From positions 70,838-134,837 of the forward strand of contig JAGVNI010000007.1 in NCBI GenBank assembly GCA_020053355.1: 64,000 nucleotides of DNA. Direction: 5' to 3'. The position numbers and the translations under genes are program-made. The stretch comes from an archaeon. Its GTDB lineage: Archaea; Micrarchaeota; Micrarchaeia; Anstonellales; Bilamarchaeaceae. The notes under the pieces were generated by a model. The model was given only the letters and a program-made list of their open reading frames with translations. It did no database searches and was not told the origin of the DNA. How positions within the stretch are numbered: the stretch's first letter is position 1; the number at the start of each line of letters is the position of its first letter. Positions 309-52,749 of this stretch are shown in pieces.

Positions 309-2758
<2,450 letters not shown>

Positions 2759-2760
2759 CT

Positions 2761-4650
2761 TTATATGTCGAGGTTCTTGACCGTGGCGCCATGCTCCTCG
2801 ATGAATGCGCGCCTCGGCTCGACCAGATCGCCCATCAGGAGCGTGAACAGCTCGTCTGCCACGAGCGCATCCTCCACCGTGACCCGCTTCAGCGTCCGCG
2901 TCTCCGGGTTCATAGTGGTCTCCCAGAGCTGGTCGGCGTTCATCTCACCAAGGCCTTTGTAGCGCTGGACGTTGGCATCCCCGCCGACGGCCTTAAGCGC
3001 GTCGGCCAGCTGCGCGTCCGTGTACATGTACTGCACGCTCTTGCCTTTCTGCACCCGGAAAAGCGGGGGCTGGGCGATGTAGAGGTATCCCTTGTCTATC
3101 AGCGCCCTGAAATAACGGTAGAACAGGGTGAGGATAAGCGTCCGGATATGCGAGCCGTCCACATCGGCATCGGTCATGATGATGACCTTGTGGTATCGCA
3201 GCTTGCCCATGTTGAAGTCCTCCTTGAACCCGGCCCCAAGGGACAGGACGATGTTCCGGATTGCCTCGCTGTCGATGATTTTGTGGATTGGGGCTTTTTC
3301 CACGTTCAGGATTTTGCCCCGAAGGGGCAGTATGGCCTGGTAGCGGCGGTCCCTTGCCTGCTTGGAGCTGCCGCCTGCCGAATCGCCCTCCACGAAATAT
3401 ATCTCGCATTTCGCCGGGTCTTCTTCCGAGCAGTCCGCCAGCTTGCCCGGGAGCACGCTGCTTTCGAAGACGTTCTTCCTGCGAATCAGGTCCTTCGCCT
3501 TCTGCGCGGCTTCCCTCGCTTCCATGGAGTTGATGATTTTCAAAGAAATGATTTTCGCGATAGGCGGGTGCTCCTCGCAGTATGTCTTGAAGGCGTCATA
3601 GAACAGGCTGTCCACCGCGCCGCGGATTTCACTGTTGCCGAGTTTCGTCTTGGTCTGGCCTTCGAACTGCGGCTCGGGCACCTTCACGCTGATAATCGCT
3701 GTCAGGCCTTCTATGGCGTCATCCCCGGTAATCTTGTGCTCCTCCTTGACAAGCTTGGCCGATTTCGTATAATCGTTCACGGCCCGTGTAAGCGCGGTCC
3801 GGAATCCGACCACATGCGTCCCGCCCTCAATCGTCTTGATGTCGTTCACGAAGCTGTAGATGCTGTCGCTGTAGCCGTCGGTGTACTGGAGGGCGATTTC
3901 GACTTCCACATGGTCGGTCTTCTTGTTCAGGTAATACGGCTCGTGGAGCTTGTTTCGCGCTTCGTTGATGTGCTTGACGAACTCGACGATTCCGCCTTCG
4001 TAGCAGAACTCCTCCTTCTTCCCGACCCGCTCGTCCGAGAGGGAGATTCTCAGGCCCTTGTTGAGGAAGGCGAGCTCCATGATGCGCTCGCGGAGGTAAT
4101 CGTAATCGAATTCAATCGAGGGGAATATCTGCGAATCGGGCTTGAACGAGACAATGGTCCCCCGCACGGCCGAGTGCGCGCCCACCTTGAATGGCTCCCT
4201 CGGCTTTCCCCTGGCATATCCGATGGTGTGGCACTTGCCGTCCCGGTGAACCTCGATGTCCATCCACTCGGAGAGGCCGTTGACGACGCCCATGCCTACC
4301 CCGTGCAGGCCCCCTGAGACCTTGTATGCCTTCTTGTCGAACTTTCCTCCTGCATGGAGGGCGCTGGCAACCAGCTCCAGGCCGGATTTGCCTGAAGGGT
4401 GCATATCCACCGGGATGCCCCTTCCGTCGTCCTTGATGAGCGCGGAGCCGTCTTTCCGGAGCTCCACCTGTATGTTCTTGCAGTGGCCTGCAAGGGCTTC
4501 GTCTATGCTGTTGTCCACGATTTCGTAGACCAGATGATGAAGACCCCTTTTGGACGTGTCGCCTATGTACATGCCAGGCCTTTTCCGGACCCCGTCCAGG
4601 CCTGTCAGGACCTGTATTTCCTTCGCTGTGTAACCGCTATCCTCAGCCAT
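2761..4650 (-). CDS. gyrB: DNA gyrase subunit B
   Basis: The 629-aa product has a GHKL ATPase N-terminus ([19 protein letters not shown]) and Toprim motifs (EGDSAGGS). It ends 2 nt before the gyrA start. Confidence 0.95.
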
Positions 4651-4754
4651 ACAATTACCACTAGTTCCTTGATGTGAATTTACGTCGTAGAGAATTCAGT
4701 ATTCTTGCCAAAAATATATTGTCTGGGAGGCTTTAAATTGGTATGGTTTTTTAC

Positions 4755-4808
4755 GGCATTGCACACAAAATAATGCCTGCACATAAACTCTTTTGGCTGC
4801 ACATTAAT
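4755..4808. promoter_or_regulatory. Operator-like repeats in the gyrB/island intergenic region
   Basis: An inverted repeat GGCATT-N11-AATGCC lies at 4755-4777. It is followed by a direct repeat of G(C/G)CTGCACAT(A/T)AA at 4776-4788 and 4796-4808. Confidence 0.3.
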
Positions 4809-4865
4809 TAGGCCTTTTTTGACGATAAAGATTTCATTTTATGACCGTTCCCACCTCTCAAAGGC

Positions 4866-4873
4866 TATAAATA
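4866..4873 (+). promoter_or_regulatory. TATA box for a leaderless transcript of the 4896 gene
   Basis: TATAAATA lies 23-30 nt upstream of the ATG at 4896. This is typical archaeal promoter geometry. Confidence 0.45.
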
Positions 4874-4895
4874 TACCTTTTCAAAATATAATTAT

Positions 4896-5603
4896 ATGAC
4901 GGAACAGCTAGCGCAAGTCGATTCCCCCAAATATTGGCGAATTTTTATAACTGCCGCTTCGGAATTTGACATACAAGGCGTTAATCTTCGAGAGGGGATC
5001 TGCAAGCACCTCAAATTACCGGGTCAAGTTTCGAATATCAAAGACGGAGTTGAACTAATTATATACGGAAACAAGATACAAGCAGAAGAAGCGAAAAAAA
5101 GAGTTTATGGCATTTGCAGGGCAATTCATGGTAGTGAAGATGTCGCCGGACTTGATATAACTCTCTCCGAGCGTCTATTTGACTTCGATATTTCCTCAGT
5201 AAAAGTAAATATTCTTCGTTCTGATGACCTACGGGAAATGGTTTGGGGCTTACAAGGGGCGGGAAGGGTCTTTCAGAAACAATTAGAACAAAAAAAGAAT
5301 CAGTGCTTTATTTCAATTACTTCGATTATAGGCTATGCTGTCGATGATGGAAGCAGTATTGCTCTCCTACAAAATCACCAAATCATGCTTCGAGAGATTC
5401 TTCAAGAGACCCCGTTTGATGAAGAGTTGACTAATTGGTTATTCACTTTCTTAGAAAAAATGATTGATAGTGATCGCCCTGGGTTATTAGGACTTATCGG
5501 GGCTCTTGAAAAAGAGACCGACCAATCAATTGAATCGAAGAGTAAGGATTACCAAGAACTTTACAGAAAAATCAAATTGAGGAAGGTAAAAAAGGGAAAT
5601 TAA
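4896..5603 (+). CDS. Hypothetical protein (235 aa), candidate toxin partner of the downstream Panacea-domain gene
   Basis: A complete ORF in the AT-rich island, 58 nt upstream of the DUF4065-like gene. I recognise no family from the sequence. Confidence 0.5.
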   Translation: MTEQLAQVDSPKYWRIFITAASEFDIQGVNLREGICKHLKLPGQVSNIKDGVELIIYGNKIQAEEAKKRVYGICRAIHGSEDVAGLDITLSERLFDFDISSVKVNILRSDDLREMVWGLQGAGRVFQKQLEQKKNQCFISITSIIGYAVDDGSSIALLQNHQIMLREILQETPFDEELTNWLFTFLEKMIDSDRPGLLGLIGALEKETDQSIESKSKDYQELYRKIKLRKVKKGN

Positions 5604-5660
5604 CGCAGGGAAATACACCACCGTAACGTATATTAACTCCTTTCGCCCCATAAAACTAGT

Positions 5661-6092
5661 ATGCGAACCGAGTTGGTGCAGCTCATTGGCGACTATTATT
5701 TTTCAATGTTTGGTGAGCCAGTTAGTGTAGAATCTTTTCAAAAAAGGCTACAATTTCAAAAATTTGTCTACACATTGGCGCACTTCAACATCATCCCAGA
5801 AGCAAAACCCTTATTCAATTGGTATATCCGAGGCCCTTATTCAAGCACAATTATGGATATTGCGTATGAACTTAGGAGTTCGGATATGTCCTTTGAGTCT
5901 AAACCACTTCCATCTGAACTATCCTTTTTTAATGAAATTAAAAATGATTCTCGAAAAATAGAATTATACGCCTCGCTTTTGTTCCTGAAGGATGCAAGGT
6001 ATTCTAAATCCGAGGCCAAAAAGCTGATTTTAATAAGAAAACCAGATTATTCACTCGAAGAAATTGAAGAAATGATTTCTCATATTCGTTGA
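5661..6092 (+). CDS. Panacea (DUF4065)-like antitoxin-type protein
   Basis: The segment FQKRLQFQKFVYTLAHFNI...KPLFNWYIRGPYSS resembles the KLQKLLYYAQ...PLF..W.YGPV core of DUF4065/SocA-like proteins. Confidence 0.5.
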   Translation: MRTELVQLIGDYYFSMFGEPVSVESFQKRLQFQKFVYTLAHFNIIPEAKPLFNWYIRGPYSSTIMDIAYELRSSDMSFESKPLPSELSFFNEIKNDSRKIELYASLLFLKDARYSKSEAKKLILIRKPDYSLEEIEEMISHIR

Positions 6093-6127
6093 ATGCAATT
6101 CGAACAAGCTCGATATGATCTACATTT

Positions 6128-7243
6128 TCATAACTGAGCGGTTGTACTCGGTTTTTTCGTTATTCCGAACAACCCGCCGTCAGATGACAACAAAAAAAGA
6201 CCTTTTTCATTTTCTATCGTCTTCATTTTCACATTAGTTTTCTTATTTTTCAATGCCCCATAGTTTTCATGAACTAGTTTAGATAACACATCCTTGTCTA
6301 TCCCAAAAATGAACTCTGAGTTAGGCATTATGTTGTCAATATCCAGCATATTACTTAGTTTAGAATGCTTTCCACTGCCCACTAATCTTTTTACGAACTG
6401 ATATGTGTTTTCTCCAATAGTGATTCGGTCCATTCCTTCATTGCTAGGTCCCTCTACCCGTAACTCTCTTTTTTCTAATATCCCTGGCAATAACTCTTTC
6501 TTTTTTGGGTAAAGATCGATTAGCTTAGCTTTATACTCTGAATATAACTGATTCCCAATTCTTTCAAAACCAGCATATTTGCATAATCTGGTATAATGTT
6601 TCAATACCTGCAACTCATACCTAGATGATTCACTTTGATCACTTCCTGGGGGGTCAGCAACAACCAGACTTGATCCTAAATCAGCATTGCTGATTAAGGT
6701 TGAAATAACAAATCGAGCTGTAGTTACCGCTGGAAGTAATCTCGCATTCTTTTGTTCTACCCCGGAAGTTATCTGAGTTCTTTGGGTCTTATGATTAAAC
6801 GTTCCTTTGCATTCAAACACCATTTCCCTTCCTTCAGACGTAACTCTATAATCTGGCCTCCTTGAAGACCCCTCAACCTCGCTTATCTCTTCCCAGTTTA
6901 AGTCAAATGTTTTCTGCATAAATAATATCCCAATTCCAACTCCCACTGCTTCGGCTACCCTACGCCTATGTTCAGAACCCATTCGCCTACAGAAGAACCC
7001 CGGTTTATCCAAAAGAAAGCTTCCTAACAGAAATCTGCCGTTATAAAAGTACTCCTCCATGCTGGGTCTGCTTACTGGATAAAGATAACGCCCCGCGGTA
7101 GAAATAAGTTCGAGATAAGTAAAACGAAATTTGTTTTGATGATTGCGAAGACGATGATCAATCGGATCTGAAAATCGTTCTAATGTTAGATCTACCCCCC
7201 TTTCTTTCTTCAATAGCGCTTCAGTTTCGAAATCAAGTTCCAT
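6128..7243 (-). CDS. PD-(D/E)xK nuclease-fold protein (371 aa), candidate defence/restriction effector
   Basis: The motif RRPDYRVTSEGREMVFECKG reads as D...E.E.K. It is preceded by a hydrophobic beta strand (AVGVGIGILFM) and followed by a 220-aa C-terminal domain of unknown function. Confidence 0.55.
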   Translation of the reverse strand: MELDFETEALLKKERGVDLTLERFSDPIDHRLRNHQNKFRFTYLELISTAGRYLYPVSRPSMEEYFYNGRFLLGSFLLDKPGFFCRRMGSEHRRRVAEAVGVGIGILFMQKTFDLNWEEISEVEGSSRRPDYRVTSEGREMVFECKGTFNHKTQRTQITSGVEQKNARLLPAVTTARFVISTLISNADLGSSLVVADPPGSDQSESSRYELQVLKHYTRLCKYAGFERIGNQLYSEYKAKLIDLYPKKKELLPGILEKRELRVEGPSNEGMDRITIGENTYQFVKRLVGSGKHSKLSNMLDIDNIMPNSEFIFGIDKDVLSKLVHENYGALKNKKTNVKMKTIENEKGLFLLSSDGGLFGITKKPSTTAQL

Positions 7244-7312
7244 ATTCTTTCCTCGGTGTCGGTATATTCCAACTTAATTTTATAAATCAGTACCGACGTT
7301 AAGCCTAAAAAC

Positions 7313-7333
7313 TAGTACGTACTAAGTACGTAC
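7313..7333. promoter_or_regulatory. Palindromic operator (TAGTACGTACTA plus a second AGTACGTAC copy) abutting a start codon
   Basis: A perfect 12-bp palindrome at 7313-7324 and a repeat of AGTACGTAC at 7325-7333, directly before the ATG at 7334. Confidence 0.4.
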
Positions 7334-7492
7334 ATGGGAAAAGGGCGAATACAGGTAGAATACGACGATGTAGATAGTCGTGAAGTAAAAGGAATGACGA
7401 AACGTCGTTGCGGCTACGTCTACTTATCGCCAGCATGGATAGACCGAAAGGTGCTGGTTCTATTGTTGCCTGAAAAGGAGATGAAAAAATGA
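7334..7492 (+). CDS. Small protein (52 aa), possible AbrB/MazE-like antitoxin or regulator. Not in the ORF track.
   Basis: MGKGRIQVEYDDVDSREVKGMTKRRCGYVYLSPAWIDRKVLVLLLPEKEMKK. Its TGA stop overlaps the ATG of the next ORF (ATGA at 7489-7492). The operator palindrome lies just upstream. Confidence 0.35.
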   Translation: MGKGRIQVEYDDVDSREVKGMTKRRCGYVYLSPAWIDRKVLVLLLPEKEMKK

Positions 7493-7779
7493 CGAGATCT
7501 ACTACTGAAGAATGGGATCAGAAAAATAGCATATTACTCAAACGCATGCAGATATACGAAATAGAATATCGCGAACGAAATTGTCTCAAGAAGACTGATA
7601 ACCACTTGAAAACAGGATGCCACGAAGTAGGTGGAGTAATCTATTGTCCAGCACTAAAAAAGTCTAAAGCAAGAAAATTCAAAAAAGAGATTGAGCAGCA
7701 GATTGCGCTCGCTTCAACGCTGAGCTCAAATACTTACTCGAATACTACTAGACGAGAAAACCCTCTACCGCTTGATTGA
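7489..7779 (+). CDS. Hypothetical 96-aa protein, coupled to the small upstream gene. Possible toxin.
   Basis: ATGA translational coupling with the 52-aa ORF. It contains C-x11-CH-x7-C. Its 3' end overlaps the convergent 7748..8836 gene by 32 nt. Confidence 0.3.
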   Translation: MTRSTTEEWDQKNSILLKRMQIYEIEYRERNCLKKTDNHLKTGCHEVGGVIYCPALKKSKARKFKKEIEQQIALASTLSSNTYSNTTRRENPLPLD

Positions 7780-8836
7780 GGAGCTCATGCTGCGGACAAT
7801 ATTTACCGACGAAGGTCCCTCGTCTAAGACTTACTGCGCTTTGCTGGAGGGCAAAACGACTTGCCACGGTTTCATAGCTGTATACTGGTTGGTGGAGTTC
7901 ATGCTCGGAACAAAGCTCGTAGATCTGGCCCATCTTCCGTATGTCGATGAAAGGACTGAATCCACTCTCTGAAACAAACTCGTCAGAGGGGTAGCGATTG
8001 GTCTGTTCTTTCCTTGAAAGAAGACCGAGACTAGCCTCATCGAATAGCCGGAGCTTAGTATAGTCCATGTCTCCCCCAGGATTTTGGTATTTTCTTATCG
8101 ATGTACTCTTGATGCCGAAGAAAGATAGCAGGCTCGGATAAGATGCTGGGATCCCTTTCCTTCTATACAGTCGTTCTACACCGCTCATATGCACCCATAG
8201 GGATTTTTTTGAGAATTCACGTAGAAAGACGAACTTCTCGTAGTTTCCAGTAAGGGAACGGTGTCTGATGTCGAGGCTCACGATGCCTGCGGCAAGGGCA
8301 GCTTCGATTTTATTCTCGAATGCCTCATCGTTATCACTTGCCATATCAATCAATACTCTTGGGAGTTTATCCTTTGACCGAATGGCGTCGATACAGTTCC
8401 CGATGTCTACCTCTAGCGATTCCACCGAACTCTCTGGTGATCGCTCGGGTATTGTCACGATGTCCAGTTCGCTCATCAACTGGCCACGGACATAGTTTCC
8501 AACAAACGTGTCGTCAAGGTCTCTCCATTTCGTTCCTGCACCAGGTTGTGCGCGTTGTAGAGTATGAGAAGCAACGCGAGAAGATTGGCCAGCAAGGCGC
8601 AAGTTTAATTCTTGGGAAAACGAGTCGTCGCTTCCCTTGACATTGAGTCCGAGCCGATTGAGATCATCGTCGATTATCTCGAATAGTTCATGAGGATATT
8701 CATAAGAGGTCTTTCCGAAACAGTGACTAAGACCTTTCTTGTAGCCATACTCGGTTGGCGTCAGTGCCCGCGTAGGCAACAGAACATGATTCGTTGGGGT
8801 TTCGAGAACCCATCCACCATCAATCAACTTCGTCAT
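7748..8836 (-). CDS. Hypothetical 362-aa protein, possibly a TGT/DpdA-like TIM-barrel. Weak.
   Basis: The start is taken at MTKLIDGG, whose ATG overlaps the stop of the upstream 75-aa gene (ATGA). GGWVLETPTNHVLLPTRALTP loosely resembles the hG.veTP.FMPVGT motif of tRNA-guanine transglycosylase-family enzymes. There is a C/H cluster near the C-terminus. Confidence 0.5.
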   Translation of the reverse strand: MTKLIDGGWVLETPTNHVLLPTRALTPTEYGYKKGLSHCFGKTSYEYPHELFEIIDDDLNRLGLNVKGSDDSFSQELNLRLAGQSSRVASHTLQRAQPGAGTKWRDLDDTFVGNYVRGQLMSELDIVTIPERSPESSVESLEVDIGNCIDAIRSKDKLPRVLIDMASDNDEAFENKIEAALAAGIVSLDIRHRSLTGNYEKFVFLREFSKKSLWVHMSGVERLYRRKGIPASYPSLLSFFGIKSTSIRKYQNPGGDMDYTKLRLFDEASLGLLSRKEQTNRYPSDEFVSESGFSPFIDIRKMGQIYELCSEHELHQPVYSYETVASRFALQQSAVSLRRGTFVGKYCPQHELLNQAVEGFLV

Positions 8837-9060
8837 ATTTTGTTCCCTCCTTCTTTCTTTTTTTGTATCGAAACTAATATACATGCAGCACCTATCGCTA
8901 CGACAGTTCCACGAGTGAATCGTTGGACCTCCACATTCGATTTTTTCAGAGTTTCTAATACCTTTTCGTCCAGTGCAGACAGCCCGGAATGAAGTAATTC
9001 GGATTGGGCAGTTTCGAGGATCTTCTTCTCTTCTTCGGAGACCAATATCGTAGTTACCAT
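8833..9060 (-). CDS. Small 75-aa protein with a C-terminal hydrophobic helix (tail-anchored)
   Basis: Complete ORF. The hydrophobic segment is VVAIGAACILVSI. It lies 46 nt downstream of the RHH gene and is translationally coupled to the 362-aa gene. Confidence 0.45.
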   Translation of the reverse strand: MVTTILVSEEEKKILETAQSELLHSGLSALDEKVLETLKKSNVEVQRFTRGTVVAIGAACILVSIQKKKEGGNKI

Positions 9061-9106
9061 GAATGTCAGAAATATATTCCTATATACATTATATAAACAT
9101 ATCTGT

Positions 9107-9253
9107 TCATTTTTTATTATCAGCCAACCAGCTTTCTATGGCTGTTCCAATAGCTTTGGAAATGCTGCCCTTTTTCAGTCCAAATACGAGTGCAGCTTTC
9201 TTTCTGAGGCGATTCTCAAGTTCATCGGGTAAAACGATTTGCATTCGTCCCAT
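9107..9253 (-). CDS. Ribbon-helix-helix (CopG/antitoxin-type) DNA-binding protein, 48 aa
   Basis: MGRMQIVLPDELENRLRKKAALVFGLKKGSISKAIGTAIESWLADNKK is a classic RHH beta-strand plus two helices. The listed 110-aa ORF has an implausible hydrophobic N-terminal extension, so I take the start at the internal MGRM. Confidence 0.6.
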   Translation of the reverse strand: MGRMQIVLPDELENRLRKKAALVFGLKKGSISKAIGTAIESWLADNKK

Positions 9254-9273
9254 AAACACATAACTACATATAC

Positions 9274-9282
9274 ATTTATAAT
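9274..9282 (-). promoter_or_regulatory. TATA box for the RHH-led operon
   Basis: On the minus strand TTATAAAT lies about 22-29 nt upstream of the RHH ATG, in an AT-rich repeat-containing spacer. Confidence 0.4.
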
Positions 9283-9395
9283 CATTAATATATGAGATAT
9301 ACACATATACACATGCCGAGGCGATTGAAATAACGATGGGTTGCATTAGTTGTGGTTCCTCTGACATCAAAATGAACGGCAGGGCGCTATAAACG

Positions 9396-9779
9396 CTATT
9401 TTTTCCGTGACTCGTTCTCCCTGACCCTGTACCGGACAATCCTTTTCACCAGGCCAAACGGTATCGGTTCATCAATCGGGAACTGGACGGACCCTTTCGC
9501 CTGCTTATAAGGGGAAAGCTCATTTTTGAAGACGGCAATCGCCGACGGGGTGGGGTAAAACCCGATATGCTTCTTAAACGCTGCAAAATGCACAAGGTTG
9601 CCGTTCTGCCTGAATGTCGGTATCCCGTACCTAATCGTTTCTTCGGCATTGGGTGCGGACTCCCTGATGGCCAGCCTGAGTTTTCTTAATATACCCTGGA
9701 TTTCTGGCGGAAATGCGGCGATATACCCGTCCATGGTTTTTTGCTGTTTTTTTGGCATTTCCATACCTATTGCTCCCAT
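9396..9779 (-). CDS. DUF1801 (YdhG-like) family protein
   Basis: MPKKQQKTMDGYIAAFPPEIQGILRKLRLAIRESAPNAEETIRYGIPTF...LVHFAAFKKHIGFYP matches the DUF1801 pattern. The true start is probably at MPKK, near 9758. Confidence 0.65.
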   Translation of the reverse strand: MGAIGMEMPKKQQKTMDGYIAAFPPEIQGILRKLRLAIRESAPNAEETIRYGIPTFRQNGNLVHFAAFKKHIGFYPTPSAIAVFKNELSPYKQAKGSVQFPIDEPIPFGLVKRIVRYRVRENESRKK

Positions 9780-22510: not shown

Positions 22511-24109
22511 ATGAAATCATCCTATATGCTCTCCAAGGAGGTCGCACGCAAGATGATTCTTGTGCATCCCCCGGAGCCGAGGAAAGAGCTTCTGCTTTCG
22601 CTCCCGACACAGGGCGTATATATCGGAAAGACGCGCTTTCTTAGGACGCCCGTCTTCTGGAACCCCGCAAAACTCATCAACCCGCACCTTGCGATAATCG
22701 GCATAACCGGCTCGGGCAAATCCTACACCGTGAAGACGTTCCTCACCCGCGCATCCATGATTTGGAACACGAACGCGGTCATATTGGACTGGGTGGGCGA
22801 ATACAACGAATGGGTGAGGCAGGCAGGCGGCCGCGTCATTAACCTGGCCAAGGAGCGCCTGAACATCCTCGACCTCGTCGGCCTCCCGAAAAGGAGCAGG
22901 ATAAAGCAGATTATCTCCGCCCTCGACATCCTACTCGACCTTAAAAGCTACCCGAACGAGCGCGACGACATAGAAGAGGCGCTCGAATTCGTCTATTACA
23001 AGGCGAATAGCGCAAAACCATCGCTCAAGGAGCAGGCCAAGGCGATGCGGGACGAGCAGAAGAAGATGCATAAGTTCAAGCTCAATAAAGAGGACGTCAA
23101 GGAGGCGCTCGGCGAACTGTGCGAAGGCGGAAGGTGCGAGAAGCCGACGCTTGCGCATGTCGTCCATATACTCGAACGCAATGGCAAGAAGAAGGCGGCG
23201 CGCCTAGTCAAGCGCTTCACGGCCGAAGGTTCGGATTTCTTCGCAGGCTCCTCGACGCTGAACATCAAGGACATAACGTCCAGCGGCCTGGTCGGCATCG
23301 ACCTGCACGACCTTCCGAGCGAGGAGATGCGCTCCCTTGCCGGCCTCACAATCCTGCAGTATATCAAGGAGCTGATGCGCGCCGAGGGCATGCAGAAGGA
23401 CAACAAGCATGTGCGCCTTTTCGTCGTGCTGGATGAGGCGTGGAAAATCGCCCAGGATGAGCGCTCGGACGTCATAACAATCGTCCGCGAAGGGCGCAAG
23501 TACAATTTTTCCTTGGTCATCGCCACGCAGAACCCCTCGGACATGCATAAGACGATTTTCAGCAACATCGGGACGGTGTTCGTCCTGCGCCTTATCCTAA
23601 AGGAGTATCGCGACTATGTCCGGAACTCAATCGGATATTCCGATTTCATCGACGGGGAGATATCCAAGTTCGGCGTGGGCGACGCCGCAGTCAACATGAT
23701 ATTCGCGGAAAGGCAGTCCCGCGTCATGACGTTCCTCATGGACAAGATTGACGGGGAAGAGCCATTGCTCATATACAAGATTCGGGGTGGAGAGATGATT
23801 GTCGAAATAGAGCGGGAGCAGTTCGTGCGGATGCTTTACGAGATAGGCCTCAACGAAAGCCAGCTCGGCCTGATTAAAAGCGAGTTCGAGCGCGGGGACG
23901 GCCTCCTCGACGGGGAACAGCTGGTTGCCGTTTTGGAGAAATTCGGCTACTCGAAGCCGTCCATAATCTCGTTCCTGCGCCAGTTGGGCATAGATGAGAA
24001 GAACCTCATCAAGGTCTTCTCGCTTGTCCGCATGCGCAAAGCCACAAAAGGCGTCGTGAACGTGGTCCTCGAGGACGGGGCGAACCCGCCATCCCTCAAG
24101 GGAATCTAA
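22511..24109 (+). CDS. VirB4/HerA/FtsK-superfamily ATPase (DUF87-type)
   Basis: Walker A (GITGSGKSYT), Walker B (LFVVLDEAW) and REGRKYNFSLVIATQNPSD, which is typical of DUF87, TraG-like and VirB4-like ATPases. Confidence 0.75.
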   Translation: MKSSYMLSKEVARKMILVHPPEPRKELLLSLPTQGVYIGKTRFLRTPVFWNPAKLINPHLAIIGITGSGKSYTVKTFLTRASMIWNTNAVILDWVGEYNEWVRQAGGRVINLAKERLNILDLVGLPKRSRIKQIISALDILLDLKSYPNERDDIEEALEFVYYKANSAKPSLKEQAKAMRDEQKKMHKFKLNKEDVKEALGELCEGGRCEKPTLAHVVHILERNGKKKAARLVKRFTAEGSDFFAGSSTLNIKDITSSGLVGIDLHDLPSEEMRSLAGLTILQYIKELMRAEGMQKDNKHVRLFVVLDEAWKIAQDERSDVITIVREGRKYNFSLVIATQNPSDMHKTIFSNIGTVFVLRLILKEYRDYVRNSIGYSDFIDGEISKFGVGDAAVNMIFAERQSRVMTFLMDKIDGEEPLLIYKIRGGEMIVEIEREQFVRMLYEIGLNESQLGLIKSEFERGDGLLDGEQLVAVLEKFGYSKPSIISFLRQLGIDEKNLIKVFSLVRMRKATKGVVNVVLEDGANPPSLKGI

Positions 24110-52144: not shown

Positions 52145-52749
52145 TCTTCGGCCAGGACGACCTCGTAGCCTTCGCCAAGCACCCGCAGAAGCACCCTTTT
52201 TTCGTCATCGACCCAGTCGTATTCCACGGCCCCGGTTTCGGACTTTATCTCCACGATATAGCTCTGGCGCCCGCTGTAGTTCTCCATCCGAATCACCCGG
52301 TAGTAGTTGTCCGTGATATATTCGGACGAGCCGTTGAAGGCGAGGTACATCGTATTGTTCCATGTCCATCCTTCTTTCAGCGCCAGCATCCACGGCTTGA
52401 AAAGAAGGATGTTGGGGTTGCTGAAGCTCACATTAGAGCCGTTCTCGTCCACGCCCCACCGGTCCAGGCAGACATCCGTGCCGTTCCGCTCCTCCGCGAC
52501 CCTGATTCTCGTGCAGCCCATCCCATCGAGGATGAGGAATGTCATATTGGCGGTCGTGTTGTTCATTATGTACGCGTACCGGTAAACCTCCCCGGGCTGG
52601 AGCGAGAACTCCTTGTTCTTCTGGAGCGGCGCCTCGCTGTAGGCTATTTTCGGGTTCTCGAAGAAGGACTTGAACATGGCGTTCCCGATTAGCACCATCA
52701 TGACCAGGGTTGCGACGGTCGCAACCGTCACGATGTCGAATTTGAGCAT
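52141..52749 (-). CDS. Membrane-anchored extracytoplasmic protein with many NxS/T sequons
   Basis: The N-terminal TM is IVTVATVATLVMMVLIG. Sequons include NTTANMT, NGT, NGSNVS, NNT, NGS and NYS. Confidence 0.5.
   Translation of the reverse strand: MLKFDIVTVATVATLVMMVLIGNAMFKSFFENPKIAYSEAPLQKNKEFSLQPGEVYRYAYIMNNTTANMTFLILDGMGCTRIRVAEERNGTDVCLDRWGVDENGSNVSFSNPNILLFKPWMLALKEGWTWNNTMYLAFNGSSEYITDNYYRVIRMENYSGRQSYIVEIKSETGAVEYDWVDDEKRVLLRVLGEGYEVVLAED

Follow-up and report, generated by a model that had tools for sequence, protein, structure and literature searches.

The DNA analysed here is a stretch of 64,000 nucleotides (nt), hereafter the window, from contig JAGVNI010000007.1 (positions 70,838–134,837 of the forward strand) of an archaeon of the Bilamarchaeaceae. 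It carries two small coupled genes, ORF52 and ORF96 (ORF, open reading frame), which are preceded by an inverted repeat and run towards a second pair of genes on the opposite strand. ORF52 (gene A) spans positions 7334–7492 on the plus strand and encodes 52 residues with an isoelectric point (pI) of 9.5; we tentatively regard the product as a DUF2080/MazE-like DNA binder and a putative autorepressor. ORF96 (gene B) spans 7489–7779 on the same strand and encodes a 96-residue protein, which is also basic (pI 9.4). The TGA of ORF52 and the ATG of ORF96 overlap in one ATGA (7489–7492). On the minus strand, gene C (7748–8836, with a longer start at 8884) encodes 362 residues and belongs to a conserved unannotated family; an AAGGAGG motif is located 9 nt before its ATG at 8836. 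Gene D (8833–9060, minus strand) encodes 75 residues with a hydrophobic C-terminus, and its stop codon overlaps the start of C, again in ATGA. Genes C and ORF96 are convergent, and their 3′ ends overlap by 32 nt. An earlier reading of the window, made from the letters and an ORF list without database searches (the sequence-only reading), had pointed to the palindrome with a second copy ending at an ATG, to an uncatalogued 52-residue ORF, to its ATGA coupling with ORF96 and to the overlap of ORF96 with the 362-residue gene; each was found again at the positions given here. For comparison we used the public Joint Genome Institute (JGI) annotation, contig Ga0394676_03279 (203 kb). It calls ORF52 and misses ORF96, the opposite of the ORF list behind the sequence-only reading.

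In a full HMMER scan, which covered 1.84 billion representative proteins, ORF96 had 10 matches at E ≤ 1e-3, the best two with E-values of 5.6e-23 (56% identity) and 2.3e-19 (53% identity). The nine prokaryotic homologues are 82–121 residues in length and share 28–56% identity with ORF96 (E 5.6e-23 to 7.2e-4). In the alignment of the family (A1), residues 7–75 form the conserved core, in which W9, Y27, G49, C53 and I68 are invariant and F64-K65-x-E67 is near-invariant. The tail, residues 76–96, is unconserved; it is the segment that overlaps the convergent gene. The hidden Markov model (HMM) of the family scored 97–123 bits for each member and 5 bits for the next best ORF. Because of these homologues and the conserved core, ORF96 is a genuine gene and the founding member of an unannotated family. 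One eukaryotic protein, P0007 (eukprot; 845 residues, seven near-identical repeats), gave seven matches to residues 29–79 of ORF96 (E 2.5e-10). This match could be due to chance or to a shared cysteine-knuckle motif, and P0007 was put aside as a doubtful family member. Locus searches of metagenome, GTDB-genome and viral contigs with ORF96 and with alignments A1 and A2 (the latter of gene C) yielded no locus that tblastn confirmed; the pattern step of these searches seems too coarse for proteins so short and diverged.

The window and the contigs of the homologues, which were recovered by exact look-up, gave ten distinct loci; the locus of P0009 (JGI 3300075153) was judged from gene calls. A small gene of 51–64 residues lies directly upstream of the ORF96 homologue in eight of the ten loci, and the two genes overlap by up to 20 nt or lie up to 1 nt apart; the coupling seen in the window is conserved across these eight loci. 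A GGAG/GGTG-type motif is found 5–10 nt upstream of every ORF96 homologue that is preceded by a small gene. In the window, the GGAG at 7477–7480 (plus strand, within AAGGAGATGA) is 8 nt before the ATG of ORF96 and reads as a Shine-Dalgarno site. The upstream partner is missing in L009, as checked in the sequence, and in the P0009 locus, as far as gene calls tell; in L009, the ORF96 homologue is the first gene of its operon. The sequence-only reading had named lack of conservation of the ORFs in homologous islands as the outcome that would speak against it. This outcome did not occur: ORF96 has nine prokaryotic homologues, and a small gene stands in the place of ORF52 in eight of the ten loci.

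In view of these data, it is hard to credit that either ORF, or the pair, is no more than a random open frame of the AT-rich island. Codon-usage scores, from a model trained on island genes with stop codons excluded, do not set either ORF apart from spurious frames; ORF96 was left uncalled by JGI, and a word-indexed search of 5.8 billion proteins found relatives of neither ORF. However, the homologues with their conserved core already refute the idea for ORF96, and the Shine-Dalgarno motifs, the coupling and the small coupled upstream ORF are conserved among the loci. Gene callers overlook some of these genes: ORF96 in the window contig is one case, and the 55-residue upstream gene of L002 (7841–8008, plus strand), which is uncalled in the public annotation, is another. 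Protein databases may therefore under-represent both families.

The inverted repeat is located immediately before ORF52. TAGTACGTACTA is a perfect 12-bp palindrome at 7313–7324; a second AGTACGTAC copy follows at 7325–7333, and the ATG of ORF52 comes directly after it at 7334. The whole is better described, and most economically, as the 19-bp dyad GTACGTACT-A-AGTACGTAC (7315–7333), which we take as a putative operator. Perfect 12-bp palindromes number 16 in the 64-kb window, compared to 15.9 expected, and dyads with 9-nt arms number 2, compared to 1.4 expected. By itself, the 12-bp palindrome is not above chance; its significance comes from its position and its conservation. Within the 38 nt that precede the ATG of ORF52, a dyad with 9-nt arms has a shuffle P of 0.0012. 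The motif GTACGTAC occurs twice in the 64 kb, both times at this locus and 11 bp apart (0.18 expected), and two copies were reached by 2 of 100 shuffles. The only other dyad with 9-nt arms in the window (9-1-9, 52708–52726) falls within coding sequence, close to where two minus-strand ORFs meet.

Like the small gene itself, the repeat recurs at the related loci. In all eight loci that have the small gene, an inverted repeat is present within −34 to +2 of its ATG, though the sequence of the repeat varies from locus to locus. Written as arm, loop and arm, the repeats are 9-1-9 in the window, 8-1-8 in L002, 10-5-10 in L005, 10-8-10 in L010, 6-7-6 in L012, 7-8-7 in L013 and 12-5-12 in L014; that of L007 is a perfect palindrome of 16 bp. 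Shuffle P values are 0.0002–0.008 in six loci, and 0.86% of 38-nt control segments contain arms of at least 8 nt. In L009, which is without the small gene, neither a repeat nor a Shine-Dalgarno motif precedes the ORF96 homologue.

The promoter regions of the window, L002 and L005 can be aligned as AAGC-[TATA]-TAGT-dyad-ATG. Both L002 and L005 possess the canonical archaeal TTTAAATA, located 22 nt ahead of the ATG. In the window, CTAAAAAC (7305–7312, plus strand) lies in the same register, 21 nt ahead of the ATG and with AAGC just upstream, and is the presumed equivalent of their TATA box. With a spacing of 21–22 nt between TATA box and ATG, the mRNA is predicted to be leaderless and the dyad to lie between the TATA box and the transcription start. 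All seven dyad pairs that the window shares with L002 and L005 are complementary (100%), and both sides have changed in three of them; when the registers of the dyad alignment are slid, pairing falls to 5–50%. The dyad is conserved in position, and its changes are compensatory. A sigma-70 promoter scan found none at the locus, and the sigma-70 consensus is irrelevant to an archaeal host. A comparable arrangement has been studied experimentally in haloarchaea, in which the VapB1 antitoxin autoregulates through a pseudo-palindrome located downstream of the TATA box (PMC13488343).

The repeat could act as a hairpin in the 5′ untranslated region (5′ UTR) that hides the AUG, or as an intrinsic-terminator-like element of the minus strand, instead of as a protein operator. 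Folding of the RNA yields −11.4 kcal/mol (z −3.6), with the U and G of the AUG taken up in base pairs; read on the minus strand, the hairpin has TAGTTTTTAG after it and was flagged as terminator-like. A strong TATA box, TTTATAAA at 7279–7286, would put the dyad in a 25-nt leader. However, TTTAAATA of L002 and L005, at 22 nt from the ATG, borders directly on the repeat and leaves it essentially untranscribed there, and the window is in register with these two loci. The minus-strand T-run merely complements the TATA-like A-run, and the closest minus-strand gene upstream stops 415 nt away and has a T-rich site of its own at about 7676–7710. The repeat has no Rfam match; moreover, a DNA-binder-like gene accompanies it, and where this gene is missing, so is the repeat. 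We therefore consider an RNA or terminator role improbable.

The protein encoded by ORF52 is less easily assigned. It matches the NCBIfam model NF033496 (DUF2080) with an E-value of 0.0019 and 17.7 bits, compared to a cut-off of 22, and has neither a Pfam match nor a PDB sequence match. Different from ORF52, its positional equivalent in L010 passes both DUF2080 cut-offs, with 25.1 bits in Pfam (cut-off 21.5) and 35.4 bits in NCBIfam (cut-off 22). A C-terminal motif, h-L-P-x-x-W-h-G-K-x-V-x-V, is common to the upstream proteins of the window, L002, L005 and L010. The DUF2080 motif resembles the MazE/AbrB signature, and ORF52 bears a likeness to the MazE ‘GNS..h.hP’ pattern. The AbrB/MazE-like character that the sequence-only reading had seen in ORF52 is tentatively backed by a sub-threshold DUF2080 match and by the L010 protein; ORF52 itself matched no Pfam family and no PDB sequence. 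The upstream proteins do not form a single family: besides the four with the DUF2080 C-terminal motif, there are four others (L012, L007, L013 and L014) that look unrelated, with no significant sequence similarity to the motif-bearing partners.

ORF96 contains the cluster C32-x11-C44-H45-x7-C53, which the sequence-only reading had noticed. Its cysteines are conserved: C32, C44 and C53 are all present in 8 of 10 members, and C53 in all ten; P0011 and P0012 have lost C32 and C44 jointly. The histidine of the cluster, H45, is not conserved. Another residue is likelier to serve as the fourth ligand on the sequence evidence, namely H39, which is present in five members, or a cysteine of a CxxC motif in P0009 and P0010; P0008 has another cysteine as candidate. 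The AlphaFold2 model of ORF96, built with alignment A1, has a mean predicted local distance difference test (pLDDT) score of 81.2 and a predicted template modeling (pTM) score of 0.64. It contains a long helix (residues 5–32), a short helix (37–42), a β-hairpin (45–52) and a second long helix (54–84). The model is a helical hairpin with a probable zinc knuckle at its tip, where the presumed ligands are located. Foldseek comparison of the model with the PDB and with viral models gave nothing significant, only generic matches; none of the toxin families of Pfam, NCBIfam, PADLOC and PHROGs matched ORF96, and no known toxin fold resembles its model.

The sequence-only reading had described ORF52 and ORF96 as a two-gene cassette. 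The pair does not stand alone, however, and is tied to the convergent 362-residue gene and to the 75-residue gene. Homologues of C are convergent with B and overlap it at the 3′ end in L010, L012 (73% identity), L013, L007 and L009 (by tblastn), which together with the window makes six sequenced loci; in the P0009 locus, the gene calls show a 371-residue convergent overlapping gene in the C position. The overlaps between B and C range from 8 to 77 nt. L009 and L010, like the window, have a gene of about 75 residues (D) upstream of C. Across the loci, the identities of B and C to the window copies drop in broadly the same order, which is consistent with inheritance of the two sequences as one unit. 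C itself had no match in Pfam, NCBIfam, PADLOC, PHROGs, the PDB, GTDB genomes, viral contigs, plasmids or phages. The P0009 locus is a 16.5-kb element with a tyrosine integrase and a D5-type primase-helicase, features that suggest an integrated plasmid or virus as carrier.

Some of the loci end differently. The L014 contig stops too early to show the downstream genes. In L005, the convergent partner of the ORF96 homologue, with an overlap of 77 nt, is a 994-residue β-helix/NosD-like protein (1546–4530, minus strand) that replaces the 362-residue family and is rich in N-x-S/T sites. A 126-residue convergent protein in L002 was considered by eye as a paralogue of B and was rejected (family HMM E 2.7). 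In the window, a terminator-like hairpin with T-runs for C is located at 7676–7710 (minus strand), inside the coding region of ORF96, and the 3′ end of the C transcript would therefore be antisense to ORF96. The T-runs are the complement of the codons for the conserved lysine-rich KFKKEI of ORF96.

The layout of the operon was the reason for the sequence-only reading to see a textbook toxin-antitoxin system here. In a classical type II system, ORF52 would be the antitoxin that neutralises ORF96, a new toxin, and the complex would repress the operon at the palindrome. Several observations fit, namely the order of operator, small DNA binder and coupled downstream gene, the patchy distribution on mobile or low-GC DNA, and the status of DUF2080 as a validated antitoxin domain. 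A constant downstream family with sequence-unrelated upstream partners also recalls the partner swapping of type II systems (PMC10440598). Partner swapping before one constant gene is equally expected of exchangeable autoregulators, however. The coupled genes and the upstream repeat stand, whereas the toxin half of the proposal finds no support: ORF96 carries no toxin signature in the family libraries, and its confident model is a helical hairpin with generic matches only. In L009 and, by gene calls, in the P0009 locus, B stands without such a partner. The antitoxin half also meets a difficulty of size. MazE has a tail that wraps the toxin; the 52 residues of ORF52 amount to the predicted β core plus about 7 residues after the last predicted strand, which would leave no space for such a tail. 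The linkage of B to C is about as strong as that to A. Because of the missing toxin signature, the partnerless B, the short ORF52 and this equally tight linkage, the strict toxin-antitoxin reading is weakened, and we consider it unlikely.

We favour another reading, to which we give a probability of roughly 0.55: ORF52 represses its own leaderless operon, ORF96 works with C, and A-B converging on C-D form a compact four-gene module on archaeal mobile DNA, to which the window adds a 48-residue ribbon-helix-helix-like gene. An archaeal promoter would drive ORF52 and ORF96 together, giving a leaderless mRNA from which ORF96 would be translated through its own Shine-Dalgarno site. The ORF52 product, a minimal β-rich DNA binder that is tentatively DUF2080/MazE-like, would bind the 19-bp dyad as a dimer. 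The dyad site lies between the TATA-like box and the start codon, and its occupancy would block recruitment of RNA polymerase and so repress the operon. A would be an interchangeable regulator and B the protein that works with C, presumably as its binding partner or inhibitor; the whole might behave like an addiction or defence module.

Several observations weigh against this proposal. The DUF2080 score of ORF52 is below threshold, BLASTP of ORF52 against the L010 protein finds nothing, and a three-sequence profile of the other DUF2080-like partners places ORF52 only fourth of 972 frames, which is not significant. The AlphaFold2 model of ORF52 shows three strands at low confidence (pLDDT 55.8). 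For the four remaining partners, the labels ‘AbrB-like’ (L012) and ‘RHH-like’ (ribbon-helix-helix-like; L007, L013 and L014) were given by eye, and Pfam, NCBIfam and PDB sequence searches do not support them. CTAAAAAC fits the TATA consensus poorly, and the better box TTTATAAA is located 48–55 nt upstream of the ATG; with transcription from that box, the dyad would fall in the 5′ UTR. L002 and L005 have A-B without C and carry different downstream genes instead. To these comes the codon usage mentioned above, which separates neither ORF from spurious frames.

To our knowledge, few toxin-antitoxin or defence-type modules, and few operators, have been characterised in archaea. The eight natural operator/regulator pairs described here, with different sequences at the same promoter position, offer a test set for repression of leaderless archaeal promoters by minimal DNA binders. 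A bolder version of the favoured reading is an undescribed archaeal addiction or defence module, in which B, a new zinc-knuckle helical-hairpin protein, would restrain a new effector C of about 360 residues, an interchangeable mini-regulator would serve each of the two operons, and the conserved 3′ overlap of the convergent transcripts would add antisense control. We offer this version tentatively and consider it less likely than not. If the 362-residue protein is indeed an effector under the control of ORF96, the module would represent a novel type of addiction or defence system on mobile DNA.

The 48-residue gene (MGRMQIVLPDELENRL..., 9107–9253, minus strand) is located upstream of D-C. It gives a weak match to RHH_5 (E 0.11), and a nine-sequence search showed it to be a homologue of the small gene ahead of B in L013 (E 4e-5). 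Its length depends on the start chosen: the product has 79 residues in the JGI call and 110 residues from an upstream TTG in the ORF list. On the other side of the module, a 371-residue orphan gene (6128–7243, minus strand) is divergent from ORF52 and contains a PD-(D/E)xK-like motif, RRPDYRV...MVFECKG. To judge by a GAGG Shine-Dalgarno motif ahead of it, the ATG at 7243 is the likely start of the gene, rather than that of the 310-residue JGI call. The word-indexed protein search found no homologues of this orphan, and its PHROG match to Holliday junction resolvases is faint (E 0.25).

The host is archaeal, and the window encodes gyrase A and B, an archaeal-type CCA-adding enzyme, a family-B DNA polymerase and SRP54. 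Overall GC content is about 57%, compared to 38–47% in an island at about 4650–9400, which holds the ORF52/ORF96 module. The island is bordered by gyrB on one side and by a DUF1801 gene on the other; no integrase or tRNA gene was found at its borders, and none of its proteins belongs to a Pfam, NCBIfam, PADLOC or PHROG family. An insertion-sequence reading of the module is not supported, as terminal inverted repeats around it are absent. Farther away, the host chromosome carries a gene for a HerA/VirB4/CedB-like ATPase (22511–24109, plus strand), which may belong to a DNA-transfer or defence locus.

Compared to known systems, the regulatory logic of the module is of a known kind, and its two protein families and convergent four-gene architecture are in no library searched (Pfam, NCBIfam, PADLOC, PHROGs, the PDB, GTDB reference genomes, and viral, plasmid and phage collections). 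Type II toxin-antitoxin operons such as MazEF and VapBC, with their MazE/AbrB or ribbon-helix-helix antitoxins, have the same coupled small upstream gene for a DNA-binder-like protein, the same swapping of upstream partners and the same patchy distribution on mobile DNA. The archaeal type II example, VapBC1 of Natrinema gari, also has a palindromic element downstream of the TATA box (PMC13488343). Different from these operons, the downstream protein here is of no toxin family or fold, the upstream protein appears to be without a neutralising tail, the downstream gene also occurs without a partner, and the pair is tied to two convergent genes.

Like DUF2080 proteins (Pfam PF09853; NCBIfam NF033496, ‘transposase-associated protein’), ORF52 has about 50 residues and the C-terminal motif, and the L010 equivalent is a true member of that family. 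ORF52 itself remains under both cut-offs, however; no transposase is adjacent, and the partner is a new family and not a nuclease toxin. SpnP2/DUF2080 is the antitoxin of NetFlax (PMC10440598), and the C-terminal domain of CalpT (bioRxiv 10.1101/2024.05.08.593097) falls under the same comparison.

With controller (C-protein) restriction-modification systems, the module shares, as a comparison of layout only, two convergent units in a compact mobile module and a small regulator-like gene that heads each unit and overlaps the next gene. Different from these systems, it contains neither a methyltransferase nor a recognisable nuclease, and its regulators are not helix-turn-helix C-proteins. Convergent transcripts that overlap at the 3′ end are also known from the type I toxin-antitoxin loci bsrG/SR4 and txpA/RatA of Bacillus subtilis. 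The overlapping 3′ ends of convergent genes would give complementary transcripts here as they do there; in the present module, however, both partners are conserved protein-coding genes.

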